Positions 16,130-62,342 are shown, counted from the first letter of the stretch. The stretch is DNA of 64,000 bases from an uncultured Chloroflexia bacterium (GCA_963703905.1 CAVPFY010000007.1:14374-78373), one strand, 5' to 3'. Notes: generated by a model not told the origin, from the letters alone. Translations and numbers: made by a program.

Positions 16130-16280
16130 CTGTGCCTCCTTCCGAAACGAAAAGCCAACCGGTGGACGGATCATTGTTCCGGGAAGCTGGGGCTGTCAAG
16201 AGTGGTATTGACAAACTGGCGTACAATTCGGCCAGCACGAACCATATTTGGTGTTCGATTACCGCTTTCGGAGGCAGCAC

Positions 16281-19493: not shown

Positions 19494-21941
19494 ATGAGCA
19501 CGGCCGGCGGACCGCTGGCGGGTTTTCGCGTCCTCGACTTCACCGACGAGCTCGGCGTTTACGCGACGAAGGTCCTTGCGGACCTCGGCGCCGACGTCGT
19601 CCGCCTCGAGCCGCCTCGGGGCGACCCAATGCGGTCGTACCCGCCCTTCGCGCCGGACGGCAAGACCAGCCTCTATTACGGTCACTTCAACCTCGGCAAA
19701 CGGGCTCTGGCGCTCGACTGGACGGCCGCCACCGGGCTCGACGCGCTGGCTGCCCTGGTCCGAAGCAGCAACGCCCTTATCGAGTCGGCGGCGCCGGACC
19801 GCCTGCTCAGCGCCGCCATCGGCATCGAGCGCCTGCGCGAGTGGCGGCCCGACCTGGCCCTGGTCTCGATCACGCCCTTCGGCCGGACCGGCCCCTACCG
19901 CGATTACAGAGGCGGCGACCTGGTGCTGTCGGCCCAGAGCGGGCTCGCCTTCCTCCGCGCCGACCCGGCCTCCCCGCCGATGCGGCCGGGCGGCGAGCAG
20001 ACCACACATATGGCATCACAGCTGGCCGTGAACGCCGCCCTGATGGGCATTTACGAGCAGCAGACCAGCGGCCGCGGCAGCTACGTCGAGGTTGCCGCCA
20101 ACTTCGCGACTTGCCTGGCGACGCTGCAGAGCGGCAACGCCAACTACTGCACCTGGTTCGGCGAAGCGCCAATCCGCCGCAGCAGCGTTTACCAGGTCTG
20201 GGAGGTCGCCGACGGCTGGACGACGTATACGAACTCGCCGCGGGGTTTCGCCAACCTCCTGGGCCTGCTGCAGGAGCACGGCGCCGAAGACGACCTCGCC
20301 GCGCCTGAATACGCTGACCTCGAGTACCGCCAGGCGCGCGCCGAGCACGTGAACGAGGTCGTCGCGCGCTTCTTCAAGACGCAGGGCAAGCAGCAGCTTT
20401 TCGAGAAGGCGCAACGGCGAGGCCTGCGCTACATGCCCGTGAACAGCGTCGCTGATATCGCCCGCGACCCCTTTCTCGTGAACCGCGGCTTCTTCCGCGA
20501 GGTCGACTGGCCGGCGCTCGGCGGCAGGGTCACCTTTCCCGGCGCGCCCTTCCGCTTCGGCGGCCGAGACCTCTGTCACACCACGCCGCCTCCAGGGCCC
20601 GGCGAGCACACGGCGGAGGTCCTCGAGTCACTTCGCGAGAAGCCGGCCGGTCCCATTTCGGCTGTAGGCGCCCCTCACGAGCGGCGCGCCGTGCCCACGG
20701 CAGGTCTCTCCAGCGAGCCGGCAAACGCACCCTGGCTGCCCCTCAAGGGCATCCGCGTCCTCGACTTCTCCTGGCTCATCGCCGGCCCCCTCGGCACGCG
20801 CCTGCTGGCGAACTTCGGCGCCGAAGTCCTGAAGGTCGAGTCTTACAACCGCGTCGATGGCATCCGCCTCACCGGCCCGCATCCGAAGACGGATGGCCCC
20901 GTCAACGTCAACGCCGACGGCTCCTTCAACGACGTGAACCTGGGCAAGAAGAGCCTCCTCCTGAACCTCAACGTCCCCGAGGCGCGCGAGATCGCGCTGC
21001 GCCTCTGCGCCGTCTCCGACATCGTCGCGGCGAACTTCACGGCCGACAGGCTGGACCGCTGGGGCCTGGGTTTCGACGACCTGCGCCGGGTCAAGAAGGA
21101 CCTCGTCTTCCTCTCCATGCCGGTGTTCGCGAAGGGCGAGCGCGTGGACTGGGGCGGCGTCGGCAGCGACATTTCCGCGCTCTCGGGCATCAACGCCATC
21201 TCGGGCGTCGAAGGCACGCCGCCGATCGGGCTCGGCCTGCACTACCCCGACTTCAGCTCCAACCCCTTCCACGCCCAGGCCGCGATCCTGGCGGCGCTGA
21301 TCAACCGCGAGCGCTTCGGCGAAGCGCAGCTGATCGAGGTCAGCCAGTACGAGTCGACCGTATCGATCCTGGGGCCGGCGTTGTTGAACTACTTCGTCAA
21401 CGGCACGGAGCCACCGCGCCTCGGCAACCGCTCTCAGCGCCATGGCCCCCACAACATCTATCGCTGCGGCGGCGCCGACAAATGGTGCGCGATCTCCGTC
21501 TCCATGGAGGACGAATGGCAAGCTCTATGCCGGGCGCTGAATCGGCCCCAGTGGATCTCGGACGCTCGCTTCGCGGACTTCGCCGCCCGTAAACGCAACG
21601 AGGACGCCCTGGACGCCCTCATCGGCGAGGCCGTTGCCGGCGAGGCGCCATCGGCCCTGGCCGCGCGCCTCCAGGGCGCCGGCGTCGCCGCCGCGCCGGT
21701 CAACAACGTCGCCAACCTGCTCGCCGACCCCTGGTACCGCGACGAATACTTCACGGTCATGGACGGCCCCGACGGCTACGAGTTCACCGCGCATGGCGAA
21801 CCGCTGCGGCCTTTCGGGCGCAAGCATCCCGTGCGCCGGGCGCCGTTCATGGGCGAGCACACCGAAGAGGTCCTGCGCGGCATCCTGGGCCTGGACGACG
21901 GGGAGATGGACGCGCTCTACGTTTGCGGCGCGCTGGGCTGA
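19494..21941 (+). CDS. Two-unit (tandem-fused) family III CoA-transferase
   Basis: Uninterrupted 815-aa ORF. Unit 1 starts LAGFRVLDFTDELGVYATKVLADLGADVVRLEPPRGD. Unit 2 starts LKGIRVLDFSWLIAGPLGTRLLANFGAEVLKVES and ends ...FMGEHTEEVLRGILGLDDGEMDALYVCGALG. Confidence 0.8.
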   Translation: MSTAGGPLAGFRVLDFTDELGVYATKVLADLGADVVRLEPPRGDPMRSYPPFAPDGKTSLYYGHFNLGKRALALDWTAATGLDALAALVRSSNALIESAAPDRLLSAAIGIERLREWRPDLALVSITPFGRTGPYRDYRGGDLVLSAQSGLAFLRADPASPPMRPGGEQTTHMASQLAVNAALMGIYEQQTSGRGSYVEVAANFATCLATLQSGNANYCTWFGEAPIRRSSVYQVWEVADGWTTYTNSPRGFANLLGLLQEHGAEDDLAAPEYADLEYRQARAEHVNEVVARFFKTQGKQQLFEKAQRRGLRYMPVNSVADIARDPFLVNRGFFREVDWPALGGRVTFPGAPFRFGGRDLCHTTPPPGPGEHTAEVLESLREKPAGPISAVGAPHERRAVPTAGLSSEPANAPWLPLKGIRVLDFSWLIAGPLGTRLLANFGAEVLKVESYNRVDGIRLTGPHPKTDGPVNVNADGSFNDVNLGKKSLLLNLNVPEAREIALRLCAVSDIVAANFTADRLDRWGLGFDDLRRVKKDLVFLSMPVFAKGERVDWGGVGSDISALSGINAISGVEGTPPIGLGLHYPDFSSNPFHAQAAILAALINRERFGEAQLIEVSQYESTVSILGPALLNYFVNGTEPPRLGNRSQRHGPHNIYRCGGADKWCAISVSMEDEWQALCRALNRPQWISDARFADFAARKRNEDALDALIGEAVAGEAPSALAARLQGAGVAAAPVNNVANLLADPWYRDEYFTVMDGPDGYEFTAHGEPLRPFGRKHPVRRAPFMGEHTEEVLRGILGLDDGEMDALYVCGALG

Positions 21942-27393: not shown

Positions 27394-27501
27394 TTCGAGG
27401 TTGGCGGCTCTGCAAGCTCAGGGATATGCTTGCCGCATACGATTGGCACGCCTCGTAGCCGAGGACTGTACCTGCGGCGCGAGGTTCTCCGAGAGGTCTA
27501 G

Positions 27502-29400
27502 ATGCCCAAACGGTACGCCAGGTTGACCCAACCCCTGGTGCGCAGGGTCGGCGAGTTGCAGCCGGCAAGCTGGGAAGAGGCCCTGGACGCCGCGGCGAGC
27601 GGGTTCCGCTCGACGACGGCGCTGCACGGCCCCGAAAGCTTCGGCCTGTTCTCCTGCTCCAAGGCCACGAACGAGGTCAACTACCTGGCCCAGAAGTTCG
27701 CCCGGCAGGTGATCGGCTGCAACAACGTCGACTCCTGCAACCGCACCTGACACGCTCCGAGCGTCGTCGGTCTGACGACAGTGTTCGGGGCGGGCGGCGG
27801 CACCAGCTCCTACCGTGAGGTAGAGGAGACGGACGTCGTCATCCTCTGGGGTTCGAACGCGCGCGAAACGCACCCCATCTTCTTCCACCACGTCCTCAAG
27901 GCCGTTAACCGCGGCGCCCGCATGTACGTGGTCGACCCGCGCCGCACGACCTCCGCCCAGTGGGCCGATGCCTGGCTGGGTCTGGACGTCGGCTCCGATG
28001 TCGCGCTGGCAAACGCCATGGGCCGCGAGATCATCGCCGCCGGCCTGCACAACCGCGCCTTCGTCGAGCGCGCCACTAGAGACTTCGAGGCCTATCGCGA
28101 GTGCGTGCAGCCTTACACCCTGGAGTACGCCGAGCGCATTACCGGCGTGCCGGCCGCGACCATCCGCGAGGTAGCGCACGCCTACGCCCGCGCCGACCGC
28201 GCCCAGCTCTGCTGGACGCTTGGGATCACGGAGCACCACAACGCCGTCGACAACGTGCTGGCGCTGATCAACCTGGCGCTGCTAACCGGCCACGTCGGCC
28301 GCTACGGCTCCGGCCTGAACCCGTTGCGCGGCCAGAACAACGTCCAGGGCGGCGGCGACATGGGCGCCATCCCCAACCGGCTGCCCGGGGGCAACGACCT
28401 GGAAGACGCGGCGCAGAGGGCGCCGTTCGAGCGCGCCTGGGGCGTCAGCATCCCGCCGAGGCGCGGCCTGAACCTGACCGAGATGTTCGAGGCGATGGAG
28501 AAGGGCACTCTGCGCACCCTGTACGTCATCGGCGAAAACCCGGCCCAGTCCGAGGCCGATATGGAGCACGCTATTCACCTGCTCGAAGGGCTCGACCACC
28601 TGGTCGTGCAGGACATCTTCCTCACCAGGACGGCCGAGATGGCGGACGTAGTCTTTCCCGCGGCGGCTTCATGGTGCGAAGGCGAAGGCACCGTCACCAG
28701 CTCCGAGCGCCGCGTCCAGCGCGTGCGCAAGGCGCTTGAACCGCCGGGCGGCGCCCGCGATGACCTCGACATCATTTCGGCCCTGGCGGCGCGCCTGGGC
28801 TTCGAATGGGGCCGGCCTACCGCCGAGCAGGTCTGGGATGAGCTGCGAGGCCTGTCTTCCTGGCACCGTGGCATGAGCTACGAACGCCTGGAGGAGCTGA
28901 ACGGCCTGCATTGGCCCTGCCCGTCTGAGGACCACCCCGGCAGCCCCATCCTCCACACACGCCTCTGGCAGGACCCCGTGGAAGGGCCCCGCGCGCCGTT
29001 CCACGCCGTCGAGCATGACCCGCCCGTCGACCAGTTGACCGACGAGTTCCCCATCCGGCTTACCACCGGACGGCGCCTCGACTCCTTCAACACCGGCGTC
29101 CAGACGGGCGGCTACACGTCGCCGCTGCGGCGGGGAGAGTCCATCGACATCCACGCCGACGACGGCCGCCGCCTGGGCGTCGCCGACGGCGAGGTCGTGC
29201 GGGTGGTGTCGCGCCGCGGCGCGATCGAGGCGCCGGCGCGCTACGACCCGACCCTGCGTCCGGGGCTGGCGTTCATGACCTTCCACTTCCAGGACGACGT
29301 CGCGACCAACATCATCACAATCGACGCCACCGACCCCAAGTCCGGTACGGCCGAGTTCAAGGCCGCGGCCATTCGCATCGAAAAGCTGCCGCCGAAGTAA
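27502..29400 (+). CDS. fdhA: Formate dehydrogenase catalytic (Mo/W-bisPGD) polypeptide with in-frame UGA read as selenocysteine; lacks the N-terminal Fe-S domains
   Basis: ORFs 27502..27750 and 27781..29400 share one frame and are interrupted only by TGA 27748-27750. The context NNVDSCNRT-U-HAPSVVGLTTVFG matches the Cys/Sec-His active-site segment of FdhF/FdsA. The protein begins at ...RLTQPLVRR...ASWEEALD, the point just after the 4Fe-4S domain of full-length alpha subunits. Confidence 0.8.
27757..27788 (+). promoter_or_regulatory. SECIS-like stem-loop
   Basis: Upper stem GUCGUC (27763-27768) / GACGAC (27774-27779) with loop GGUCU. Lower stem CCGA (27757-27760) / UCGG (27785-27788). The loop G and U fall at +23/+24 from the U of UGA. 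Confidence 0.65.
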
Positions 29401-29573
29401 TCAGTAATTAGTCGCCAGTAGTGAGTCCCGACTCCGGTCTCGCGCGGCTGACCCTGGTTTCCGAATGCGGATAATGGCGTAGGCTTGCATCGCCTCTGAG
29501 TCGCCGGTCGCGGCGGTCGCGGGCATGGCACCACCGCCGCCCGTTCGAGGCTGCACCGATGCCGTCCGAACTG

Positions 29574-29601
29574 ATGACTGACAACTAATGACTGACAACT
29601 A
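29574..29601. repeat. 14-nt tandem repeat ATGACTGACAACTA x2 (stop-rich spacer)
   Basis: Two perfect copies lie directly before ATG 29605. The related low-complexity string TCAGTAATTAGTCGCCAGTAGTGAGTC occurs at 29401-29427. Confidence 0.8.
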
Positions 29602-29604
29602 ACG

Positions 29605-31604
29605 ATGGACATCCACCTCATCCCGAACGCCGTGCCGGACGACGCCGAGCGCGCCGCCGTCGACGGCGTCCTTGGGCCTCCCGAGACAGGCTGGGACGGC
29701 GCGACTCAGCGTTCCCCGCTCGAAGGGCACGTCGGCCGCGCCGGCCAGGACACGCGCGACGACCGACACCTGCTCCTGCCGGCGCTCGAAGCGGTGCAGC
29801 GCCGCGCCGGATACATCAGCGCAGGCGCGCTCAACTACGTCTGCCAGCGCCTCACGGTGCCGCCGGCCGAGGCCTACGGCGTTGCCAGCTTCTACGCCCT
29901 CCTCTACCTCAAACCGACGCCGCCCAACGTCGCCCACGTCTGCGATGACCTCGCCTGCCGCATCAACGGCGCCCTCGACCTCTGCCGCGAGGTCGAGGCC
30001 CGCCTCGGCCCCGCCGGCGAGCCGGCCGCGGACGGCGCCTCTACCTGGAAGCGCAGCCCCTGCCTCGGCCTCTGCGAGCTGGCTCCGGCGGCGCTGGTCC
30101 TGCGCGCCGGCGAAAATCCGGCCGAAGAGGCGATCGCCCCGGCTACCGCGGATGCCGTCCTGGCGGCCCTGAGCCTGCCCCTCGAAGCACCGCCAAGCTC
30201 CCTTCCCGTCCGTCCTGAGGCCCTCGAAGGACGCCCTGGGCAAAGGGGCTCCCTTCCCGTTCGTCCTGAGGCCCTCGAAGGACGAACGGGAACCGACGCC
30301 CCGAACGTGCGCTCTGGCTCCCGCTCCGCCCCCCAAACACAGTCCGAGGACCGAGCCGCCCTCGTGCTCCTGCGCCGTGTCGGCCGCGTCGACCCCACGA
30401 GCCTGGACGAATACCGCGCTTCCGGCGGCTATGCCGCCCTGCGCCGCGCCTTCGAGCTCGGGCCCGGCGGCGTCATCCGCGAGCTGCTCGATTCCGGCCT
30501 GCAGGGCCGTGGCGGCGCCGCCTTCCCGACCGGCCGCAAGTGGCAGGAGGTGGCCGCGCGCGCCGGCACGGCCGCACTACGTGGTCTGCAACGCCGACGA
30601 ATCCGAGCCCGGCACCTTCAAGGACCGCCTCCTCATGGAGGAAGACCCCTTCGCCCTGATCGAGGCAATCACCATCGCCGGCTACGCCGCCGCCTGCGCG
30701 CGCGGCTACATCTACGTCCGCGGCGAGTACCCCCTGGCCGCCGCGCGCCTCGAAAACGCGATCGACCAGGCCCGCGCCCGCGGCTTCCTCGGCGCCGACA
30801 TCATGGGCGAAGGCTTCGACTTCGAGATCGAGGTCAGGCGCGGCGCCGGCGCCTACATCTGCGGCGAGGAGACCGCGCTGTTCAACTCGATCGAAGGGCT
30901 GCGCGGCGAGCCACGCAACAAGCCGCCCTATCCGACCCAGGCCGGCCTCTTCGGCAAGCCGACGCTGGTCAACAACGTCGAGACGCTGGCGAACGTGCCC
31001 GATATCGTCCTCGGCGGCGGCCCGGCCTACGCCGCCACCGGCTCAGGCCAGTCCCACGGGCCGAAGCTGTACTGCGTCTGCGGCCACGTCGAGCGCCCGG
31101 GCGTGTACGAGGTGCCCTTCGGGACGACGCTGCGGCAGGTGCTGGACCTGGCCGGCGGCGTAGCGCGGCGGCCGGCCGTTGAAGGCGATGCTCCTCGGCG
31201 GCGCCGCCGGCACCTTCGTGACCCCGGACGAGCTCGACGTGCCGCTGACGTTCGAGGGCACGCGCGCGATCGGGGCGGCGGTGGGCTCGGCAGTCGTCAT
31301 GGCCCTCGACCAGGGCGCCGACCTCGCGGATTTCGTCCTCCGCGTCGCCCAATTTTTCCGCGACGAATCCTGCGGCCAGTGCGTGCCCTGCCGCGTCGGC
31401 ACCCAGCGCCAGGAGGAAGCGCTTCAGCGGCTGGCGCTGGGGAAGCCGCTCGGCGGCGTCGAAGAGGAGATAATGCTCATCGACGACATCGCGCGGGTGA
31501 TGCGCGACGCCTCGATCTGCGGTCTGGGCCCGACAGCGCCGAACGTGGTGCAGTCGGCGATCCAGAAGTTCGGCTTGTTCCGCGACTCACCGCGAGTGAG
31601 ATGA
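29605..31604 (+). pseudogene. NuoE-like (2Fe-2S) fused to NuoF-like (FMN/NAD/4Fe-4S) diaphorase, FdsG-FdsB type, with two frame disruptions
   Basis: NuoE part: VCDDLAC...SPCLGLCELAP. NuoF part: GRGGAAFPTGRKWQEV in frame 1; then YVVCNADESEPGTFKDR...GAGAYICGEETAL in ORF 30377..31645; then LLGGAAGTF...ESCGQCVPCRVG in ORF 31179..31604. Shifts lie near 30565 and 31170. Confidence 0.75.
30198..30290. repeat. Two in-frame copies of the dispersed palindromic repeat inside the NuoE-NuoF linker
   Basis: The unit CTCCCTTCCCGTYCGTCCTGAGGCCCTCGAAGGACG occurs at 30198-30233 and 30249-30284, a 51-nt period. The second copy forms a perfect 12-bp stem, CCCGTTCGTCCT (30256-30267) / AGGACGAACGGG (30279-30290). 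The units encode SLPVRPEALEGR twice. Confidence 0.85.
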
Positions 31605-31718
31605 CTGCGAATGTGAGGTTGAACATGCAGGAGCCGGCTCCGTGACAACAGAGCGCAGTTCCTCCAGGATTGGCGGATACGGGGACGGCAGGTCGACATC
31701 ACGGTCGACGGCCGCGCC

Positions 31719-32621
31719 GTGAGCGTGCCAGAGGGCACGACGCTGCTCCAGGCCTGCCGCGCCGAGGGCATCGACACGCCGACGCTCTGCTATCTGGAGA
31801 CGCTGACGCCCGTCAATGTCTGCCGCGTGTGCGTCGTGGAGCTGGAGGGATCGCGGGCGCTGGTGCCGGCCTGCTCGCGCAAGGCAGAGCCGGGCATGGT
31901 GGTGAGCACCGACAGCGAGCGGGTCCGCCACAGCCGGCGCCTGGTGCTCGAGTTCCTGGCCTCATCCGTCGACCTCTCCTGCGCGCCGGCCGAAGTCCAG
32001 GGTTACCTGGAACGCTACGGCGCCGCGCCGCAGCGCTTCGGGCCGGCGGCGCCGCCGGCAGCGGCGGGTGAGCGCGACGCCCTGGAACCGGGCCACCATC
32101 ACGCGACCAACGCGGCGGCAACCGTGCGCCAGCCGGCGATGGTCGACAACAACCTCTACATCCGCGACTACTCGCGCTGCATCCTCTGCTACAAGTGCGT
32201 CGAGGCTTGCGGCGTCGATGCTCAGAACACCTTCGCCATCGCCATCGCCGGCCGGGGCTTCGACGCCCGCGTCTCCACGGAGTTCGCGGCGCCCCTGCCG
32301 GACTCCGCCTGCGTCTACTGCGGCAACTGCATCGCCGTCTGCCCTACCGGCGCGCTCATGTTCAAGAGCGAGCAGGACATGCGCGCGGACGGCACCTGGG
32401 ACGAGGCCAGGCAGACGAAGACGGACACGATCTGCCCCTACTGCGGCGTCGGCTGCACGCTTCAGCTTCACGTGCAGGACAACCGCATCGTGAAGGTGAC
32501 GTCGCCCCTCGACCATGACGTGACCAGCGGCAATCTCTGCATCAAGGGCCGCTTCGGCTGGCAGTTCGTCCAACTACTCGAAGAAGATGAGGCCCCAAAG
32601 CGCCGTGGCCCAGTCGCTTAA
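31719..32621 (+). CDS. Formate dehydrogenase alpha-subunit N-terminal Fe-S module as a separate polypeptide (2Fe-2S, 4Fe-4S clusters and the bisPGD-type 4Fe-4S domain)
   Basis: PTLCY...VCRVCVVE, CILCYKCVEAC, CVYCGNCIAVCP and CPYCGVGCTL...NLCIKGRFGWQFV. Homology (RQVDITVDGRAV) extends upstream of GTG 31719 to about 31686. A GTG at 31642 lies in another frame, so the true start or one more indel near the GGGG run at 31681-31684 is unresolved. Confidence 0.75.
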   Translation: MSVPEGTTLLQACRAEGIDTPTLCYLETLTPVNVCRVCVVELEGSRALVPACSRKAEPGMVVSTDSERVRHSRRLVLEFLASSVDLSCAPAEVQGYLERYGAAPQRFGPAAPPAAAGERDALEPGHHHATNAAATVRQPAMVDNNLYIRDYSRCILCYKCVEACGVDAQNTFAIAIAGRGFDARVSTEFAAPLPDSACVYCGNCIAVCPTGALMFKSEQDMRADGTWDEARQTKTDTICPYCGVGCTLQLHVQDNRIVKVTSPLDHDVTSGNLCIKGRFGWQFVQLLEEDEAPKRRGPVA

Positions 32622-33461
32622 GCCTCCGGCCTCCACCCAGGCGCGTATCGTCCGCTTCGCCGGCGACGGCGTGTCGCAGGACGATGACCTTCTCGCCGGC
32701 GAGGAGCCGCTAGAGATCCGGCTGCTCTGGAAAGAGGGCCGCGAACAGGTGCAGCGCCAGATCGCCGTCACCATGCGCACGCCCGGCGACGACCTCGCCC
32801 TGGCGGCCGGCTTCCTTTACGGCGAAGGCATCCTCCGCGGCCGCGATGACGTCGCCGACGTTTCCTACTGCCTGGACGATGACGATGCCCAAGCGCTGAA
32901 TATCGTCACTGTGACCCTGAGACCGGGCCTGGAATTCGACGCATCGCGGTTGCAGCGCAACTTCTACACCTCGTCCAGTTGCGGCGTCTGCGGCAAGGCC
33001 TCGATAGAGTCTGTCGAAGTGCAGGGCTGCCAGCCCATCGCCGATGCCGTCGCCAGTCAGCGCCGCCGTCGCTGCGCGGCCTGCCGAAGGCGCTGCGCTC
33101 CGCCCAGGCCGTCTTCGAGCAGACGGGCGGCCTGCATGCCGCCGGCCTCTTCGACGCTGAAGGGAATCTCTTGCTCGTGAAAGAGGACGTGGGAAGACAC
33201 AATGCCGTCGACAAGGTCATCGGCGAGTGCTTCCTGGAAGGGCGGATGCCGCTGACCGGCGACATCCTGCTCCTCAGCGGCCGCGCCAGCTTCGAGCTGC
33301 TGCAGAAGGCAGTGGTCGCGCGCATACCCATCGTCGCAGCCGTCGGCGCGCCTTCCAGCCTGGCCGTCGAAATGGCGCGCTCCTTCAACGTCACCCTGGC
33401 CGGGTTCCTGCGCCCGGAAAGCTTCAACGTTTATGCCGCGCCGGAGCGCATCCGCTCCTGA
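32587..33461 (+). pseudogene. fdhD: FdhD formate dehydrogenase accessory sulfurtransferase, one frame disruption
   Basis: ORF 32587..33180 (...TPGDDLALAAGFLYGEGI...SSSCGVCGKASIE) continues in ORF 32979..33461 (...GGLHAAGLFD...DVGRHNAVDKVIG...). The shift is near 33060. Confidence 0.8.
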
Positions 33462-33616: not shown

Positions 33617-34503
33617 ATGAACGCGCTCGACTACGAAGCGCCGGCAACTCTCGCTGAGGCAGTGGCCCTGCTGGGGCAGCACGGCGCCTCCGCCCGCGTG
33701 CTGGCCGGCGGCACCGACGTCATCATCCAGCACCGCGAAGGCCGCCGAAACGTCGGCGTCATGGTCGACGTCAAGCACATCCCGAAGACCATGGAGCTGA
33801 AGCTCACGCCCGACGGCGCCTGCGCATCGGCGCCGCGACGTCCTGCGCGCACGATCTACGAACGAACGCCGAGGTCGCGCGAGCGCTTCCCGGCGCTCAT
33901 CGACTCGGCGTCGCTCATCGGCGGCATCCAGATCCAGTCGCGCGCCAGCCTCGGCGGCAACCTGTGCAACAGCTCGCCCGCGGCCGACTCGATCCCGACG
34001 CTGATCGTGCTCGGCGCGGTCTGCGAGATCGCCGGCCCGAAGGGGCGCCGCACGCGTGCCGGTCGAGGAGTTCTGCACCGGCGCCGGGCCAGAACGTGCT
34101 GCGCGCCGGACGAGCTGCTCGTCGCGCTTGTCGTTCCCGGCGCCGGCCGCCAACAGCGGCGCCGCCTTCGAGCGCTTCATCCCGCGCAACGAGATGGACA
34201 TCGCCGTCGCCAACGCCGCCGCGAGCGTCGACGCTGTCCGCCGACGGCTCGAAGTTCGAGTCGGCGCGCATCGCCGTCGGCGCCGTCGCGCCGACGCCGC
34301 TCTTCGTCGAAGGCGGCGGGCGACGCGCTGGCCGGCCAGCCGGTGTCGCGAGGAGAGCATCGACAAGGCCGCCGCGGCCGCTTCGCGCCGCGGCGAGGCC
34401 GATCACCGACATGCGCGGCTCGGCCGCCCAGCGCAAGCACCTCGCGGGCGTGCTGACGCGCCGCGTCATCAACAAGGCCGTCGAGCGAGCGAGGGGAGCC
34501 TGA
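33617..34503 (+). pseudogene. Xanthine dehydrogenase family FAD-binding (CoxM-like) subunit, multiply frame-disrupted
   Basis: MNALDYEAPATLAEAVALL...RVLAGGTDVIIQ, then recognisable pieces (SLIGGIQIQSRASLGGNLCNSSPAADSIPTLIVLGA; MDIAVANAAA; ITDMRGSAAQRKHLAGVLTRR) scattered over all three frames. Confidence 0.7.
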
Positions 34504-34506
34504 GCG

Positions 34507-35008
34507 ATGAGCGCGACGAACGCCACGTCAGCGCGACGATCAACGGCGAAGCAGGTCGACTTCCTCGTGCGAGCCGCGCCAGAGCCTGCTGGAGGTGCTG
34601 CGCGACGAGCTGGGGCTGACCGGCACGAAGGAAGGCTGCAACAACGGCAACTGCGGCGCCTGCAACGTGATCCTGAACGGCGCGCTGGTCAACTCCTGCT
34701 GCGTCCTCGGCGTCGAGGCCGAGGGCGCCGACGATCACGACGATCGAGGGCGTCGCCGAGCGGCGACCACCTGCACCCGCTGCAGACGAGCTTCCTCGAG
34801 GACGCGGCGCTGCAGTGCGGCATCTGCACGCCGGGCTTCATCGTCGCCGCGAAGGCGCTGCTCGACAGCGAGCCCGAACGCCGACGAAGCGCGCATCCGC
34901 CACTGGCTGGCCGGCAACCTCTGCCGCTGCACGGGCTACGACAAGATCGTGCGCGCGGTGCTGGACGCCGCCGAAGCAGATGCGCGCGCACGCCGGCGAA
35001 CGGCCTAA
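34507..35008 (+). pseudogene. (2Fe-2S)-binding small (CoxS-like) subunit, multiply frame-disrupted
   Basis: The pieces VSATINGE, LRDELGLTGTKEGCNNGNCGACNV, LQCGICTPGFIVAAKALL and LAGNLCRCTGYDKIV lie in different frames. Exact start and stop are uncertain. Confidence 0.65.
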
Positions 35009-35028
35009 GCACGACAAGGAGCAACGCG

Positions 35029-37305
35029 ATGGTCACCGACGGACAAGCCCAAGTACAAGGTCATCGGCACGCGGCCGGTCCGCCCGGACGGCGTCGACAA
35101 GGTCACCGGCCGCGCGCAGTACGGCGCCGACATCCGCCTGCCGGGCATGCTGCGCGGCCGCATCCTGCGCAGCCCGCACGCCCACGCCATCATCAAGCGC
35201 ATCGACGCGTCGAAGGCGCTGGCGCTCGCCGGGCGTGAAGGCGGTCGTGACCGGCGCGCGACCTCGTCGGGCCCGGCCAGGCGACGTCGCGAAGCTGCCC
35301 GACGCCGCGCACGAACATCCTCGCCGGGCGACAAGGTCGCTCTACCGCGGCCACGCCGTCGCCGCCGTCGCCGCGATCAACGACCACATCGCGCAGCGAG
35401 GCCGTGCGACCTGATCGAGGTCGAGTACGAGGTGCTGCCGCCCGTGCTCGACGTGCGCGAGGCGATGCGCCCGGACGCGCCGATCCTGCACGAGGCGCTG
35501 CGCACGCGCGCGCCGCCGGGCCCGAGCGAAGGCCCGACGAACGTCGTCGCGCACAGCGTCGCGGTCGTCTTCGGCGACGTCGAGAAGGGCTTCGCCGAGT
35601 GCGACGTCGTCGTCGAGCGCGAGTTCTCGACCAAGATGGTGCACCAGGGCTACATCGAGCCGCAGGCCTCGACGGCGATCGTGGAACGCCGGACGGCCAG
35701 CTCACGATCTGGACCAGCACCCAGGGCTCGTTCCCCGCGCGCGAGGCGCTGCGCGCAGATCCTCGGCCACCCGATCTCGAAGATCAAGGTGATCCCGACG
35801 GAGATCGGCGGCGGCTTCGGCGGCAAGATCAGCGTCTACCTGGAGCCCGTCGCGGCGCTGCTCTCGAAGCAAGACCGGCAAGCCGGTGACGATGCAGATG
35901 GACCGCGTCGACGTCTTCGAGGGCACCGGCCCGACGCCCGGCACGTCGATCAAGGCGAAGCTCGGCGCGACGAAGGACGGCACGCTTCCGCGCCGCTCAG
36001 CGCCGACATGGCGTACGAGAACGGCGCCTTCCCGGGCTCCGCCGCCGATGTACGCGACGATGGTCATGCACGCGCCGGCTACGACATCGAGAACGTGAAG
36101 CTCGACGCGCTACGACGTCGTCGTCAACAAGCCGCGCACGCAGGACTACCGCGCGCCCAGCGCGCCCGCCGCCGCCTTCGCCATCGAGCAGCTCGTCGAC
36201 GAGCTGGCGCGAGAAGCTGGGCATGGACCCGCTGAAGCTCCGGCTGATGAACGCCTCGCACGAAGGGCACGCGCGGCCCGATGGGCATGCCCTTCAAGCC
36301 GCATCGGCCACGAGGAGTGCCTCGAGGCGGCGCTGAACTCGCGCGCACTACAACTCGCCGCTCGAAGGCCCGAACCGCGGCCGCGGCGTCGCCTCCGGCT
36401 TCTGGTTCAACGTCGGCCTGCGCTCCAGCGTCAACGTCAGCGTGCAGCCGGACGGCACCGTCAACCTCATCGAGGGCAACACCGACATCGGCGGCACGCG
36501 CGCGTCGCTCGCGATGCAGCTCGCCGAGACGCTGGGCATCGCCTTCGAGGACGTGAAGCCGACCGTCGTCGACACCGACTCCGTCGGCTACAACGACGTC
36601 ACCGCCGGCAGCCGCGTCGACCTTCGCCACCGGCATGGCCGTGCACGAGGCCGGCAAGAACCTGATCAAGGAGATGACGGCGCGCCTCGCCCCGCACGTG
36701 GCAGGTCGCAGCCGGACGACATCGAGTTCGAGGACGGCGTCTTCAAGACGAAGGACGGCGCGAAGACCGGCGCCTTCAAGGAGATCGCCGCGCAGGTCGT
36801 CGGCCGCGGCGTCGGCGCTCACGGTCAGCGGCTCCGTCAACGCCGGCTTCCTCGCGGGCGGCGGCTTCGCCCACGCACATCGTCGACGTCGAGGTCGACC
36901 CCGAGACCGGCAAGGTGACGATCCTGCGCTACACCGCGATCCAGGACGCCGGCACCGCCGTCCACCCCGCGTACGTCGAGGGGCAGATGCAGGGCGGCGC
37001 CGTCCAGGGCATCGGCTGGGCGCTGAACGAGGAGTACTACTACGACGACAGCGGCCGCATGGCGAACTCGAGCTTCCTCGACTACCGCATGCCGACGTCG
37101 CTCGACGTGCCGATGATCGACACGATCATCGTCGAGGTGCCGAACCCGCTGCACCCGTTCGGCGTGCGCGGCGTCGGCGAGCCGCCGCATCGTGCCGCCG
37201 CTCGCGGCGATCGCGAACGCGGTCTACCGCGCGACGGGCGTGCGCCAGACGCAGCTGCCGATGTCGCCGCGCCGCATCCTGGAGACGACGCTGGGGCTCG
37301 AGTAA
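35029..37305 (+). pseudogene. Xanthine dehydrogenase family molybdopterin-binding (CoxL-like) large subunit, heavily frame-disrupted
   Basis: The RBS AAGGAG precedes ATG 35029. Pieces KYKVIGTRPVRPDGVDKVTGRAQYGAD, LRGRILRSPHAHA, DLIEVEYEVLPPV, MVHQGYIEPQ, IPTEIGGGFGGK, DYRAPSAPAAAFAIEQLVDELA, ILRYTAIQDAGTAVHPAYVEGQMQGGAVQGIGWAL and YRMPTSLDVP alternate between frames about every 50-300 nt. The YRAPS context is not the CODH AYxCSFR motif. Confidence 0.7.
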
Positions 37306-37684: not shown

Positions 37685-40618
37685 ATGTCGGTCTCAGGCG
37701 TGGTCCGCGCGGCAATTGCGCCTCTGGCGGCCGTCATCATCGTCCTCGGTCCGGGGGAGGAGCCGTCCGGGTCCCGGCCGGCCGCGGCGGCGGAGTTCAC
37801 GCCCACTGCCACCCAGCTGCCGATAGCCGCCCAGCCTACCCTCACGCCCACGCGGCCGGTCTCTTCGGTCCCAACCCGCACCCCAACGCGTACGCCAACG
37901 CGCACGCCCCTGCGGACCGCGACGGTGACGCGGACGCGGACAACTACACCAACCAATCCCCCCGGCCCGACCCGGACGCCCACGCCTGTGATAGCCCAGT
38001 TGTTCACGCCGGCGCCGCCCGGCGTCGCGACCGTCCCGCCGGTGGTCCCCGGTGACCTCACGCTGCCCTCGCCGACCAACACGCCCTTCTCCTTCGGCGT
38101 CGAACCGCCAACACCGACGCCGCTGGGCCTTACCGCGCCGCCGCCGACGCCCACACCGCCTTCGCTTACATCCGGGCAGGTGCCTGACCTGGTGGCGACG
38201 GACATGGAGGTGACCCAGGGCATCCAGAACCTGGCCAACCAGGTGCCACTGGTCTCGTTGCGGATCACCGCTGTCCGGGTCTACGTGCGGACCCAGGACC
38301 CAGATGTGCCGGCAATCAACGTCAGCGGCGCCCTCGGCGCCTGGCGGGATGGCGATTTCCTCGGCGCGGTGTACCCCGAAAACGGGCCTATCTATGCCAT
38401 TCCCAGCGGCGGCGAACGCATCAACGTCGACGACAGCCTCTACTTTTATCTCCCCGGGTCCTGGACCTTCGAAGGGCCGTTGACCCTGAAGGCGTTCGTT
38501 TATTCGGGCTCGCCCGGCTCGCCGGAGGATTTCGAGCCGGACGCCGACAACAATTACATTCAGCGCGAGGTCACCTTCTCGCCCGCGGAGACGTTGAAGC
38601 TGAAGCTGGTGCCCGCGCACCTGCACTCCTTCCCCAGCCCGCAGAGCGCCGAGGTGACCTACCTCTACCAGGACCACGAGACCGACGCGTTGAAGGTCCT
38701 CCTCTACCTGTACCGAATCTTCCCCATCTCCAGCCTCCAGTGGGACGCCGGCATGGAGTTCGATCTCTTGCCCCTGTTCGGCGGTGAAGAGACGACGATC
38801 CCGGCAACCGTATTCCCTGTCGGCCACTGGGATGGAAGCGAGTGGGACCTCTCCCTCAGTGCCAGCCGCGACGAGCTCAATTCCCAGATCGCAATCCTCA
38901 AGATCCTGTTCACTGAGGACTGGGAGGGCTGGCAGTGGTACGGGATGGTCGATTCCAGCGTCAGCATGGGTAACTTCTCCGGCTGGGCGACCTCGGGCGT
39001 CGCGCACGGCAAAATGAGCACCGGCGCCTCCTACGCGCCCTGGTACATCGGCGGCGGCAACACTCTTGCCCACGAAGTCGGCCACAACCGCGGCCTCAGC
39101 CACGACCTCTGCAAAGGTAACGAGGAGTCGGGCGGCGCCCTGGACCCGGATTACCCCTACCAGTTCCCGGACTGCAGCATCGCCGACATCGACCCGGCTG
39201 GTTATTACGGCTTCGACACGCACTGGGCCCTGTTCTCGAATACAAGCGGCCCCACCGTCATGAGCAACGACCCGGCCGAGTCTTCGCCCAACCAGGCCTA
39301 TCCCTTCATGGGTTACCAGCCGCCCAAGTGGGCCGACCCTTACAACTACTGCAAGCTGCTCCCCGCCTTCGGCATCGATTGCGACGTCGGCGCCCTGAAC
39401 ATCCGCTGGCCGGCCATCTCACCCCAACTCCAGGCGTCTACGCAGCCTCAGCCTCAGGCCCACGACCACGCGTCGCACAGCCACCCGGCCGCGGCAATGG
39501 AAGGGGAGCGCCCCGCGGCACGGACGAACGCCGCCGGCGAATACGTCTTCGTCAGCGTCTCCATCGATAGTTCAGGCGCGGCTGCGCGCTTGATCGATGT
39601 CATGCCGGTCGCGAATCCGCCTCAGGCAGCCGTTGACGAGGCCTCGCGGCGGCGGCAGGCGATGGCGGCCAGGCCAAGCCAGCTCCAGCTTCGCTTAGAA
39701 GACGGCGCCGGCCGGGTGCTGGCGTCTCATCCGCTGGCGGACATCGACCCGGCACAGCACGAGTCCGGCCAGGACTCGCGCCTCTTCGCCGAGCTGTTCG
39801 AGCTTCCAGCCGGCACGCGGGCAGTGCTCGTCTTGAACAGCGGCGCCGAGATCGCCGGCCGCCGGGCCAGCGGCGCCGCGCCTTCGGTAGTGATCACCAG
39901 CCCGGCGCCGGGCGCGCAGATTTCGGCGCCTCTCGACCTTCGCTGGCAGGCTACCGACCCGGACGGCGACCAGCTGCGCTTTAGCGTCCTCTACAGCCCG
40001 GACGATGGCGCTACCTGGCGCGTCGTCGCCGCCAACCAGCGCGACAGCGGCGTGCGCCTGCCGAACCTGGAGATGCTCCCGGGCAGCGACCGCGCCCGCT
40101 TCCGGATCATCGCTTCGGACGGCTTCAACACCGGCGAGGCCGTCACGCCGGCGTCTTACCGCGTGCCGAACTCCAGACCCCGGGCCGCGATCTTCGGGCC
40201 GGCCGCCGGAGCCGCCTTCGACCGCGGCCAGACGGTCGTGCTCCTGGGCGCCGCCATGGACCTCGAGGAAGGGACGATCGGCGACTCGGGCCTGAGCTGG
40301 CGCTCGAGCCTGGACGGAGACCTTGGACAGGGAAGGCAGGTCGAGACGCGCGGGCTGCGACCTGGCACGCATCGCATCACCCTGACCGCCACCGACGCTT
40401 CCGGCGCGGCCGGCGAGTCTTCGGTCGAGATCACGGTCGGCGACTCGGGGCGCGATCGCATCCCTTCGGACGCCGACCGCGATGCGATTCAGCGTTTGCT
40501 CACGGGGACCGGTGAAGGTGGCTCGCGTACGTTGCTTCTCGCCGCCGGGGCTGCCGTCGCCGCGGCGTTGCTGGCCCTTGTGGCGCTGATCCTGCTGCGT
40601 CGAAGGCGGACCGCCTGA
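37685..40618 (+). CDS. Membrane-anchored surface protein with reprolysin-type (HExxHxxGxxHD) zinc-metalloprotease motif and Ig-like C-terminal domains
   Basis: Intact 977-aa ORF. It has an N-terminal hydrophobic segment, a Pro/Thr-rich linker (TRTPTRTPTRTP), the motif LAHEVGHNRGLSHD, repeated beta-rich segments (DLRWQATDPDGDQLRFSVLYSPDDGATW...) and a C-terminal TM helix plus RRRRTA. Confidence 0.6.
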   Translation: MSVSGVVRAAIAPLAAVIIVLGPGEEPSGSRPAAAAEFTPTATQLPIAAQPTLTPTRPVSSVPTRTPTRTPTRTPLRTATVTRTRTTTPTNPPGPTRTPTPVIAQLFTPAPPGVATVPPVVPGDLTLPSPTNTPFSFGVEPPTPTPLGLTAPPPTPTPPSLTSGQVPDLVATDMEVTQGIQNLANQVPLVSLRITAVRVYVRTQDPDVPAINVSGALGAWRDGDFLGAVYPENGPIYAIPSGGERINVDDSLYFYLPGSWTFEGPLTLKAFVYSGSPGSPEDFEPDADNNYIQREVTFSPAETLKLKLVPAHLHSFPSPQSAEVTYLYQDHETDALKVLLYLYRIFPISSLQWDAGMEFDLLPLFGGEETTIPATVFPVGHWDGSEWDLSLSASRDELNSQIAILKILFTEDWEGWQWYGMVDSSVSMGNFSGWATSGVAHGKMSTGASYAPWYIGGGNTLAHEVGHNRGLSHDLCKGNEESGGALDPDYPYQFPDCSIADIDPAGYYGFDTHWALFSNTSGPTVMSNDPAESSPNQAYPFMGYQPPKWADPYNYCKLLPAFGIDCDVGALNIRWPAISPQLQASTQPQPQAHDHASHSHPAAAMEGERPAARTNAAGEYVFVSVSIDSSGAAARLIDVMPVANPPQAAVDEASRRRQAMAARPSQLQLRLEDGAGRVLASHPLADIDPAQHESGQDSRLFAELFELPAGTRAVLVLNSGAEIAGRRASGAAPSVVITSPAPGAQISAPLDLRWQATDPDGDQLRFSVLYSPDDGATWRVVAANQRDSGVRLPNLEMLPGSDRARFRIIASDGFNTGEAVTPASYRVPNSRPRAAIFGPAAGAAFDRGQTVVLLGAAMDLEEGTIGDSGLSWRSSLDGDLGQGRQVETRGLRPGTHRITLTATDASGAAGESSVEITVGDSGRDRIPSDADRDAIQRLLTGTGEGGSRTLLLAAGAAVAAALLALVALILLRRRRTA

Positions 40619-43726: not shown

Positions 43727-43973
43727 ATCTGTCCTGTGCTCCCTTTCTTCTTCCGGCCGTCGCTGGTCGCATGACGGCCCCTGGACCGGCGTATCCGCGA
43801 TTTCAGCAAGGTGAAATCGCGGCCTTCCGAAACGTTTCCAGTTTGGGGAATGGTCGGCTGTCCGCGTCTGCCTGTCAATCCCGGCGGGCGCGATGGCATC
43901 AGGCCGCCCATTACAAGGCCCTTGATGTCGAGGGCAGGGCCGAAGGCGGGGCAATCCCCTTGGCGTCGGGAGC

Positions 43974-62269: not shown

Positions 62270-62342
62270 CGCTCGGGCCCTCCCCTCCACCGCCCTGTCT
62301 ATTCGAGGATACAGTCGCCTGATGGCCTCGTTTGTAATAACG

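Follow-up and report, generated by a model that had tools for sequence, protein, structure and literature searches.

A putative selenocysteine-containing formate dehydrogenase whose alpha subunit is encoded by two separate genes in reversed order

The window analysed here, a 64-kb stretch of DNA from an uncultured Chloroflexia bacterium, encodes the two parts of a formate dehydrogenase alpha subunit in separate genes, with the C-terminal part first. Is this arrangement genuine and, if so, what enzyme does it specify? The genes for the catalytic subunit, a NuoE-NuoF fusion (NuoEF), an iron-sulfur (Fe-S) subunit, and FdhD follow each other in this order, all on the plus strand (Table 1). Around 2.3 kb separate the end of the catalytic gene, which corresponds to the C-terminal part of alpha, from the downstream Fe-S gene, which corresponds to its N-terminal part. 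The coordinates confirm what a previous sequence-only reading had claimed, namely that the C-terminal half is upstream of both the diaphorase gene and the N-terminal half. Instead of one alpha polypeptide in which a NuoG/HoxU-like extension is fused to the catalytic domains, we found two genes, and no second, full-length alpha gene within the 64-kb window. Judging from its sequence, the operon probably encodes a soluble NAD(H)-linked formate dehydrogenase of three polypeptides, dependent on selenocysteine (Sec) and on Mo or W.

Table 1. Positions of the features of the locus, counted from the first nucleotide of the window
Feature	Position	Strand	Evidence
Catalytic subunit gene	27502..29400	+	Translation MPKRYARLTQPLVRR..., Pfam, TIGR01591
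In-frame TGA, predicted selenocysteine and metal ligand, in CNRT-U-HAPS	27748..27750	+	Alignment, conservation
SECIS-like hairpin directly 3' of the UGA	27753..27792	+	Predicted fold, covariation
Apical stem-loop GUCGUC-GGUCU-GACGAC	27763-27779	+	Within the SECIS-like hairpin
Long spacer, catalytic to NuoEF gene	29401..29604	+	Inverted repeat flanks; tandem repeat at its end
14-nt tandem repeat (TGACTGACAACTAA x2)	29575-29602	+	3' end of the spacer
NuoE-NuoF fusion gene (diaphorase: [2Fe-2S], FMN/NAD(H) site, [4Fe-4S])	29605..31604	+	Pfam
Stand-alone Fe-S subunit gene (probable start)	31670..32621 (literal ORF from GTG 31719)	+	Pfam, homologues
FS0 domain (Molybdop_Fe4S4), CPYCGVGC...C-I-K-GRFGWQFV	32415..32573	+	Pfam PF04879, alignments
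fdhD, predicted sulfurtransferase maturing the catalytic subunit	32587..33461	+	Pfam FdhD-NarQ on both frame pieces

The break between the two halves

The catalytic gene has 632 codons, counting the UGA. It starts 6 residues ahead of the conserved RLTxPL motif and a TAG directly precedes its ATG, at 27499-27501, as had been read earlier. The only Pfam domains of the product are Molybdopterin (PF00384, 4.7e-71) and Molydop_binding (PF01568, 1.7e-24). Pfam detected no Fe-S domain in it, and it has no Cys motif; hence it lacks the FS0 domain that members of the TIGR01591 clade carry at the N-terminus of the same polypeptide. The match to TIGR01591 covers positions 52-672 with 662.9 bits, slightly below the equivalog cut-off of 666.25, because the first 51 positions of the model are missing. 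The active site is present, with the predicted Sec ligand and its neighbouring His in CNRT-U-HAPS and the active-site Arg in PLRGQNNVQG. Its best solved relatives are FdhF-type enzymes, which align from their residue ~63 onward. The catalytic genes of related loci also have their own start, 4-8 codons ahead of RLTxP, and stop codons are found upstream in most loci.

The missing domain is found on the Fe-S subunit. Pfam identifies Fer2_4, two Fer4 motifs, and Molybdop_Fe4S4 in the ORF at 31719-32621, which gives the order [2Fe-2S], two ferredoxin-type [4Fe-4S], and the FS0 [4Fe-4S] cluster. The match to PF04879 (1.3e-20) spans residues 242-294 of the translation starting at 31692. It aligns to the A1-cluster region of FdsA and to residues 8-50 of E. 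coli FdhH. The four Cys and the conserved Lys of FS0, part of the catalytic polypeptide in one-piece enzymes, are thus located on the Fe-S subunit, whose product ends, as previously described, in ...NLCIKGRFGWQFVQ, followed by a short tail overlapping the start of fdhD at 32587. When both products are aligned to FdsA of R. capsulatus (6tg9_A), the Fe-S half spans residues 26-303 and is separated by a gap of 4 residues from the catalytic half, at 308-931. Along TIGR01591, the C-terminus of the Fe-S protein covers positions 1-50 and the catalytic half starts at 52. The alignments proposed to look for a clean, non-overlapping break therefore found one, and together with Pfam they bear out the idea that alpha is divided just after its FS0 [4Fe-4S] domain, ahead of the Mo/W-pterin domains.

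The Fe-S subunit keeps the motifs of clusters A1, A2, A3, and A5. Three of the four ligands of the His-ligated [4Fe-4S] cluster (A4, HxxxCxxCxxxxxC) are lost relative to 6tg9_A (His to Val, Cys to Ala, and Cys to Leu). The same loss is seen in close relatives, and Pfam finds no His-ligated-cluster domain in the subunit. Its best 120 homologues are all stand-alone proteins of 296-334 aa, save one entry of 392 aa with an internal duplication, and the best 120 matches to each half are all of the split type. The Fe-S half had been considered an intact ORF. This ORF is indeed present, but the real start is probably upstream, at TTG 31670, with one base to be removed: the conserved N-terminal strand VDITVDG precedes GTG 31719 in the same frame, relatives have 316-325 aa, and the deletion of one base within 31673-31691 yields a product of 316 aa. 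The sequence-only reading included neither this likely displaced start, nor the loss of the His-ligated cluster, nor the selenocysteine codon.

The selenocysteine codon and its hairpin

The catalytic half had also been described as an intact ORF. Its frame is unbroken over 1.9 kb, except for an in-frame TGA. This codon aligns with U140 of the U140-H141 pair of E. coli FdhH (CARV-U-HGPS), and both the TGA and the motif occur at this position in all 79 sequences (78 related loci and the window). Of 72 distinct sequences, 70-72 retain the six pairs of the apical stem 3' of the UGA, and 6 show a compensatory CG-to-GC change. The loop reads GGUCU throughout, apart from a single GGGCU, and GGUCUG is found at nucleotides 22-27 from the U of the UGA, in the same register as in E. 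coli fdhF. The fold of the window hairpin is not significant when the single sequence is considered (z = -1.1), and no Rfam family matches it. In 3 of 60 related loci (L009, L014, and L050), a tRNA-Sec gene precedes the catalytic gene by 2-3 kb; in the 64-kb window we found no tRNA genes, tRNA-Sec included. Since the TGA is found in 79 of 79 sequences and is followed by a conserved and covarying SECIS hairpin, the catalytic subunit is, on comparative grounds, a selenoprotein.

Conservation of the locus and competing explanations

A synteny search had been suggested to assess the gene order. We found the catalytic, NuoEF, and Fe-S genes in this order and on one strand in 74 of the 74 related loci whose upstream sequence reached far enough. 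Eight phyla are represented: Acidobacteriota, Chloroflexota, Actinomycetota, Gemmatimonadota, Planctomycetota, Methylomirabilota, Dormiibacterota, and Vulcanimicrobiota. A member that is 46% identical (L084) has the same gene order. All relatives found are from metagenomes or MAGs, and their contig names follow the styles of SPAdes, MEGAHIT, Flye, and metaMDBG, which indicates varied samples and assemblers. Both halves are under purifying selection (dN/dS of 0.09-0.22).

In most loci, the stop codon of the catalytic gene abuts or overlaps the start of NuoEF, and relatives show a 4-nt overlap between NuoEF and the Fe-S gene. The spacer between the catalytic and NuoEF genes is unusually long in the window, and it contains one weak promoter-like match at 29448-29475. 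The corresponding spacer measures 80 nt in L085, the closest relative, whereas most other loci have ~0-10 nt. Around 10 loci have unrelated genes between the two, over 1.6-3.6 kb, so co-transcription is not universal. The fdhD gene is present in the fetched flanks of ~40 related loci, at variable positions and orientations. Its intact homologues have 283-284 aa and score 288.8 bits against NF001943, above the cut-off.

The NuoEF gene of the window is broken into three frame pieces that together carry 2Fe-2S_thioredx, Complex1_51K, SLBB, and NADH_4Fe-4S domains. Intact homologues of 612-674 aa are found at the same position in L001, L002, and L085, and an intact homologue matches TIGR01959 with an e-value of 1.2e-134. 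Pfam finds no extra ferredoxin (Fer4) domains in the fusion, which is, by its domain content, of the non-bifurcating type. Its NuoF part scores ~395 bits with several NuoF and HydB chains, against 322 bits with Fdh1B, and is thus not specifically closest to the latter.

The frame disruptions of the neighbouring genes, already remarked upon in the sequence-only reading, raise the possibility that the operon of the window is a decaying cluster of pseudogenes, where the frameshifts and the lost Fe-S start are real and the two halves are relics. The disruptions themselves are there. Relative to L085, in which every gene is intact, NuoEF has two +1 insertions near 30555 and 31166, whose removal restores an ORF of 665 aa, and four 1-nt indels, three of them insertions and one a deletion, disrupt fdhD between 33033 and 33071. 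Furthermore, no start codon precedes the conserved N-terminus encoded by the Fe-S gene. If the indels of NuoEF and fdhD were real, this copy would be inactive. However, natural decay is not restricted to insertions, whereas these disruptions are local and almost all one-base insertions. The region 33821-37304 has ~55 one-base insertions relative to L085 and almost no deletions, and long ORFs are intact on either side (977 aa at 37685-40618 and 815 aa at 19494-21941). The absence of the frameshifts from L085 and the predominance of one-base insertions suggest an artefact, and the frameshifts in NuoEF and fdhD are most likely sequence errors. The low dN/dS of both halves against relatives (0.09-0.13 in this comparison), the lack of frame errors in the catalytic gene over 1.9 kb, and the conservation of the recoded UGA and its hairpin across related loci also argue against relics. 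We thus regard decay as unlikely.

Slightly less likely still, the two halves might not be partners: the Fe-S protein and NuoEF would form an independent NAD(H) module, and the catalytic protein would use another partner or work without FS0. The unrelated genes intercalated in around 10 loci are compatible with this, as is the existence of enzymes of the superfamily that lack FS0 altogether (PMC10100899). Yet, all loci that could be examined have the three genes together, always in this order, and the last domain of the Fe-S protein has one known role, which is to sit against the pterin of a Mo/W-bisPGD subunit. Moreover, the break amounts to a 4-residue gap in FdsA, and the nearest relatives of the catalytic half are FdhF-type enzymes, all of which depend on FS0. 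These observations favour the three-polypeptide enzyme.

Finally, an assembly or scaffolding error hiding the canonical layout, in which the diaphorase gene precedes a single alpha gene, has a negligible probability in spite of the obvious local sequence errors of this assembly, since the order and the break point recur in 74 of 74 loci, and in L001-L003, L084, and L085, across assemblers, samples, and eight phyla, which excludes misassembly, and since the catalytic gene has its own start and the Fe-S gene its own stop after a short tail.

The layout had been presented as unfamiliar but perhaps present in databases. It is well populated there, under generic names only ('2Fe-2S iron-sulfur cluster-binding protein', 'YjgC', 'HndD', 'formate dehydrogenase major subunit'). 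Our full-text literature search did not retrieve a description of a split, reordered formate dehydrogenase, and none of the structural matches is a solved structure with this split. The system thus appears to be a widespread and apparently undescribed subunit variant of the NAD-linked metal-dependent formate dehydrogenases.

Proposed function and comparison with known systems

In the proposed enzyme, the catalytic subunit (632 residues) would oxidise formate, or reduce CO2, at its metal-bis-pyranopterin site. It would provide the Sec-His pair and the conserved Arg and would hold no iron-sulfur cluster of its own. FS0, the first relay cluster, and the Lys beside its fourth Cys would come from the Fe-S subunit (~316 aa), whose C-terminal domain would dock where one-piece enzymes have their own N-terminal domain. 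The next carriers would be the two ferredoxin-type [4Fe-4S] clusters and then the [2Fe-2S] cluster of the Fe-S subunit, from which electrons would reach the [4Fe-4S] cluster and the FMN of the NuoE-NuoF fusion and reduce NAD+. FdhD would sulfurate the cofactor, and the UGA would be recoded through an E. coli fdhF-type SECIS hairpin. We infer the assembly of the three proteins, the electron path, the use of NAD, and the formate substrate from the sequences.

Metal-dependent formate dehydrogenases are much-studied catalysts of CO2 reduction and models of long-range electron transfer. To our knowledge, the characterised members that use FS0 all carry it on the catalytic polypeptide. With FS0 on another protein, the catalytic subunit would be free of Fe-S clusters and the subunit interface would cut the electron path from pterin to cluster. 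This would show that the junction can be non-covalent, and would offer a ready-made Fe-S-free catalytic module for engineering. It is also the NAD-linked, selenium-dependent type present in MAGs from several groups, among them Acidobacteriota, Chloroflexota, and Actinomycetota. Many of these MAGs come from soil, an environment in which formate metabolism and selenium use have been little studied. Since gene callers cut the gene at the UGA and the product falls 3 bits short of the NCBI equivalog model, annotation undercounts the enzyme.

It is conceivable, if rather doubtful, that a widely distributed clade has moved FS0 and its Lys to another protein, maybe adaptively, and that the operon is a frequently transferred cassette. 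Protein identity is 70-80% across the eight phyla, and if this idea is true the cassette would be one of aerobic soil bacteria. The split could limit the cost of failed UGA recoding, which would waste a peptide of 82 residues; a one-piece enzyme could instead release an Fe-S fragment of ~385 residues, a possible competitor for the diaphorase. It could also keep the maturation of the cofactor apart from the assembly of the Fe-S clusters. As for the permuted order, a diaphorase-alpha operon may have been duplicated in tandem, and the resulting array may then have lost both ends.

Among known systems, FdsABG(D) of R. capsulatus and Cupriavidus necator (6tg9, 6vw7) has the same set of redox modules as the window, and FdsA is the protein that the Fe-S half resembles most. 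The N-terminal region of FdsA carries [2Fe-2S], two ferredoxin-type [4Fe-4S], and FS0 before the Mo-pterin domains, the partners are NuoF-like and NuoE-like modules, and maturation requires FdhD. The direct chain of the R. capsulatus enzyme runs through bis-MGD, A1, A2, A3, A5 [2Fe-2S], B6, and FMN, whereas the His-ligated A4 cluster is off this path, at the dimer interface (PMC7171172). The clusters of the direct chain, A1-A2-A3-A5-B6-FMN, all have counterparts in the window, but the dimer-interface A4 does not. In addition, FdsA is a single polypeptide of 958 aa, where the window has two genes in reversed order with the diaphorase gene between them; FdsB and FdsG are separate proteins, fused in the window; and Fds uses Cys, the window Sec. 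The tungsten enzyme Fdh1AB of Methylobacterium extorquens AM1 (7e5z, 7vw6), also soluble and NAD-linked, matches the window products and pairs an FdsA-like alpha with a beta that is a NuoE-NuoF-type fusion (572 aa) as in the window. Its alpha (989 aa) is in one piece and uses Cys, while that of the window is split and uses Sec.

The closest solved relatives of the catalytic half are E. coli FdhH (fdhF; 1aa6) and FdhF of the Thermoanaerobacter kivui HDCR (7qv7), with 467-522 bits. FdhF shares the Sec position and the SECIS loop GGUCUG in the same register. Unlike the catalytic subunit of the window, it carries its own FS0 (residues 1-60; CxxCxxxC...C-L-K-G), and unlike the operon it has neither a NuoG-like extension nor an NAD-linked diaphorase. 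The electron-bifurcating formate dehydrogenases HylCBA-FdhF2 of Gottschalkia (Clostridium) acidurici and Desulfotomaculum resemble the window in that a NuoG/HydA-like Fe-S protein is separate from the Sec catalytic subunit and is accompanied by NuoF-like and NuoE-like partners (PMC5736913). There, however, the catalytic subunit keeps its own [4Fe-4S] cluster and HylB has extra ferredoxin-type clusters (PMC5736913). The split of the window lies on the other side of FS0 and its NuoEF lacks the extra clusters. The lack of extra Fer4 domains in NuoEF and of FS0 in the catalytic subunit sets the window system apart from this bifurcating type.

A precedent for dividing a Mo/W-bis-pyranopterin catalytic subunit at a domain boundary into two polypeptides is found in the formylmethanofuran dehydrogenase FwdB/FwdD (5t5i). 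That split presumably removes the C-terminal cap domain rather than FS0, FwdB keeping its own [4Fe-4S] cluster. FwdB matches the catalytic half of the window weakly, and the substrate and partners of FwdB/FwdD differ from those of the window system. According to Radon et al., a separate subunit replaces the C-terminus of alpha in Methanothermobacter wolfeii (PMC7171172).

Position of the break in the alpha subunit

The sequence-only reading described an alpha subunit cut at the boundary between its Fe-S and molybdenum parts, with the two halves permuted around the gene of the diaphorase. The domains and coordinates of the four genes, all on the forward strand within 27502-33461 of the window, agree with this description. 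The catalytic gene starts at MPKRYARLTQPLVRR, with a TAG immediately 5' of its ATG, and the Fe-S protein ends at ...CPYCGVGC...NLCIKGRFGWQFVQ, followed by a short acidic tail. Aligned to R. capsulatus FdsA (6tg9_A), the Fe-S protein corresponds to residues 26-303 and the catalytic protein to residues 308-931; on TIGR01591, the NCBI equivalog model of the alpha subunit, they correspond to positions 1-50 and 52-672. Judged from these two independent measures, the break is clean and non-overlapping.

Features of the window and of related loci
Feature	Position	Strand	Remarks
Catalytic gene	27502-29400	+	only Molybdopterin (PF00384) and Molydop_binding (PF01568) domains
NuoE-NuoF fusion gene	29605-31604	+	2Fe-2S_thioredx, Complex1_51K, SLBB, NADH_4Fe-4S
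Fe-S gene, literal ORF	31719-32621	+	Fer2_4, two ferredoxin-type 4Fe-4S motifs, Molybdop_Fe4S4
fdhD	32587-33461	+	overlaps the tail of the Fe-S gene; two frames
Family-5 solute-binding protein genes (SBP_bac_5), n=5	14249-16174, 17505-19391, 41915-43954, 56222-57904, 60587-62290		within 64 kb
Protein with two CoA-transferase family III domains	19494-21941		815 aa
Protein with bacterial Ig domain	37685-40618		977 aa
Insertion after the catalytic gene	L070 2482-6052		also in L008, L012, L014, L029, L045, L057, L083
tRNA-Sec genes	L009 742-840, L014 442-538, L050 1755-1852		related loci

The two halves separate within a loop of about four residues, at the boundary between the first pterin-binding domain and FS0, the [4Fe-4S] domain (Molybdop_Fe4S4) that is N-terminal on the catalytic polypeptide of one-piece enzymes. 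In the alignment, the equivalent point of E. coli FdhH lies between ...GYYGWDFIND and RLKTPMIRR. The conserved Lys after the fourth Cys of FS0 (C-I-K-G) is retained on the Fe-S protein. In the FdhH structure of Boyington et al. from 1997 this residue reportedly bridges FS0 and the pterin, and if so the subunit interface would cross the electron path itself. Rejoining of the halves, by a split intein or otherwise, was rejected because the joining segments are too short: the tail of the Fe-S protein after GRFGWQFV has about 6-25 residues and the N-terminal lead of the catalytic protein 4-8. The translated catalytic protein has no twin-arginine signal, its N-terminus being too short.

The spacer between the catalytic and NuoE-NuoF genes (29401-29604) measures 204 nt in the window, 80 nt in the closest relative (locus L085), and about 0-10 nt in most other members. 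It is flanked by an inverted repeat (TCAGTAAT.AGT / ACT.ATGACTGA), has at its 3' end a 14-nt tandem repeat (TGACTGACAACTAA twice, 29575-29602) with stop codons in several frames, and holds one weak promoter-like site at 29448-29475. The spacer may represent an element inserted in this lineage or a site of RNA processing. The linker between NuoE and NuoF (30170-30330) contains a tandem peptide repeat (SLPVRPEALEGR twice), and blastn gave no HSP to L085 over 30171-30323.

Conservation of the layout and state of the window copy

That the layout might exist in databases had been anticipated, and the best 120 homologues of the Fe-S protein are all stand-alone proteins with the same domains, without PF00384, and with 75-87% identity. 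Their lengths are 296-334 aa with one exception, the 392-aa protein P0002. It was considered as a fused form cut at the selenocysteine and rejected; its ferredoxin region is duplicated internally, probably as an artefact of assembly. A scan with one genome per species gave at least 525 relatives, the best 80 of which were used for the phylum survey and the locus comparison. These 80 belong to Acidobacteriota, Chloroflexota, Actinomycetota, Gemmatimonadota, Planctomycetota, Methylomirabilota (including Rokubacteria), Dormiibacterota, and Vulcanimicrobiota. Among them, the catalytic, NuoEF, and Fe-S genes follow each other in this order and on one strand in all 74 loci with enough upstream DNA, as they also do in L001-L003, L085, and the more divergent L084. 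Complete genomes with the operon include OZ253507.1, OZ253463.1, and OZ244775.1. At the related loci the start codon of the catalytic gene precedes RLTxP by 4-8 codons. The stop of this gene touches or overlaps the start of NuoEF in most loci, and a 4-nt overlap joins the NuoEF and Fe-S genes, which is consistent with one translationally coupled operon.

In around ten loci, unrelated genes amounting to 1.6-3.6 kb are inserted between the catalytic gene and NuoEF, both of which are left undisturbed. In one of them, L070, the ORF translations, judged by eye, resemble an ECF-sigma-like factor, a probable anti-sigma protein, and GYD-like and SRPBCC-like proteins. The place and orientation of fdhD differ among related loci. 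The operon of L084 (1868-7894; Fe-S protein 46% identical, selenocysteine codon present) lies directly downstream of genes for formate-tetrahydrofolate ligase and FolD, which hints at a tie to C1-folate metabolism in some hosts.

Both halves have dN/dS values of 0.09-0.22, and in clustering at 50% the family forms one main cluster, the nearest one-piece proteins being only 38-46% identical. Two alternatives had been raised against the split, a misassembly of a canonical operon and a pair of redundant relics. Given the shared gene order, the stand-alone homologues, and the low dN/dS, both are excluded for the family.

The window copy itself is interrupted by frameshifts. The syntenic L085, whose Fe-S protein is 87% identical, has intact genes for NuoEF (674 aa), the Fe-S protein (322 aa), FdhD (284 aa), three CoxM/S/L-like proteins, and ThiS. 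Relative to it, the NuoE-NuoF gene, which as written occupies three reading frames, has two one-base insertions (30555 and 31166), whose removal restores a 665-aa protein. In fdhD, three insertions and a single deletion, each of 1 nt, lie within 33033-33071, and the CoxM/CoxS/CoxL-like genes (33821-37304) have about 55 one-base insertions with almost no deletions; the inserted bases there are mostly G or C and often make CpG. The catalytic gene is free of frame-shifting indels. It can be aligned to its relatives in a single frame from end to end, and over its 3' end (28990-29420) the alignment to L085 is gapless. The long ORFs on both sides (977 and 815 aa) are also intact, and the names of related contigs indicate 6-9x long-read assemblies. 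Since the indels are localised and of the insertion-only kind, they speak for an erroneous assembly consensus and against gene decay.

Protein identity is 70-80% between phyla, which are interleaved in the match list, and this suggests that the operon spread horizontally. A tblastn search of the PLSDB plasmids with the Fe-S half found no family member; it matched one-piece FdsA-type genes only, all below 60% identity (33-36% among the matches listed). As to the origin of the order, two speculative routes are a diaphorase-alpha operon that was duplicated in tandem and then lost both ends, and a fission with subsequent translocation. The one-piece database proteins closest to the Fe-S half (P0258, P0245, and P0210; about 40% identity) were considered as a lead to an ancestral operon and proved uninformative, as they either belong to another type, linked to Rnf and carrying a fused NuoE domain, or lie on short contigs. 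P0258 (locus L086) and P0245 (locus L088), of 838-961 aa, have the NuoE-type domain at their C-terminus, and their genes follow immediately on those of an Rnf complex, a separate and also poorly described architecture.

Selenocysteine, Fe-S clusters and the predicted electron path

Three points had gone unnoticed in the sequence-only reading: a selenocysteine, the loss of cluster A4, and a probably displaced start of the Fe-S gene. The motif CNRT-U-HAPS of the catalytic ORF contains an in-frame TGA (27748-27750) at the position of Sec140 in E. coli FdhH (CARV-U-HGPS), and both codon and motif are invariant in 79 of 79 readable sequences (78 related loci and the window). Thirteen nt 3' of the TGA lies a hairpin, GUCGUC-GGUCU-GACGAC, whose six pairs are kept in 70-72 of 72 distinct sequences, with a two-sided CG-to-GC change in six sequences, another pair that varies UA/UG/CG, and a loop that is invariant except for one GGGCU. 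Counted from the U of UGA, GGUCUG occupies nucleotides 22-27, the same register as in E. coli fdhF. An Rfam scan of 27400-28100 gave no match to a SECIS family and the single-sequence fold of the hairpin was no better than shuffles, so the case for a SECIS element rests on the comparative data. In three related loci of Chloroflexota type a tRNA-Sec gene (anticodon TCA) lies 2-3 kb upstream of the catalytic gene, which links the decoding tRNA to the operon in some lineages; the 64-kb window has no tRNA genes. Gene callers cut the catalytic protein at the UGA, and every one of its database homologues is split into pieces of about 82 aa and 490-579 aa.

Upstream of the GTG at 31719, in the same frame, we found the conserved first strand of the Fe-S protein (VDITVDG) and no start codon. 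Deleting one base within 31673-31691 joins the ORF to a TTG at 31670 and gives 316 aa; the relatives have 316-325 aa and an N-terminus of the form M-x(8-15)-V-[DE]-[ILV]-T-[IV]-DG. In the alignment, the ligands of the His-ligated [4Fe-4S] cluster A4 of FdsA (His117, Cys121, Cys124, Cys130) correspond to Val, Cys, Ala, and Leu, and this cluster is lost here and in the relatives. The direct chain of R. capsulatus formate dehydrogenase consists of bis-MGD, A1, A2, A3, A5, B6, and FMN, with A4 off it at the dimer interface (PMC7171172), so every direct-chain cluster is kept here.

The enzyme is most likely a three-protein soluble formate:NAD+ oxidoreductase, whose subunit assembly, substrate, metal, and direction we infer from sequence. 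Electrons from formate would enter the Sec-Mo/W-bis-pyranopterin of the catalytic subunit, move to FS0, contributed by the Fe-S subunit, and continue through the two [4Fe-4S] clusters and the [2Fe-2S] cluster of that subunit to the NuoF [4Fe-4S], FMN, and NAD+. The NuoE [2Fe-2S] would lie off this path, in parallel to cluster G7 of the R. capsulatus enzyme (PMC7171172). Since the NuoEF fusion has none of the extra ferredoxin domains of bifurcating HydB/HylB, we expect a simple, non-bifurcating NAD coupling. FdhD would mature the cofactor.

Comparison with known formate dehydrogenases

The sequence-only reading named no characterised formate dehydrogenase with this split and permuted layout. 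None of the solved structures matched has FS0 on a polypeptide other than that of the pterin domains, and the open-access papers and preprints searched or read contain no description of such an arrangement. In their redox modules, the nearest systems are FdsABG(D) and M. extorquens Fdh1AB, the beta subunit of the latter being a fused NuoEF-type protein like that of the window, and FdhF-type selenocysteine enzymes are nearest to the catalytic half. FwdB/FwdD are presumably split at a different boundary. A separate C-terminal subunit is described in M. wolfeii (PMC7171172). HylCBA-FdhF2 also has a separate Fe-S subunit, but its catalytic subunit keeps its own [4Fe-4S] cluster (PMC5736913), whereas that of the window does not. 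The split operon is not a new kind of system; it is a real, conserved, and widespread subunit variant of a well-known enzyme, apparently undescribed. What sets it apart most is an FS0 cluster that comes from a separate protein, selenocysteine being universal in MAGs from phyla with many aerobic soil lineages, and the systematic mis-annotation of its members.
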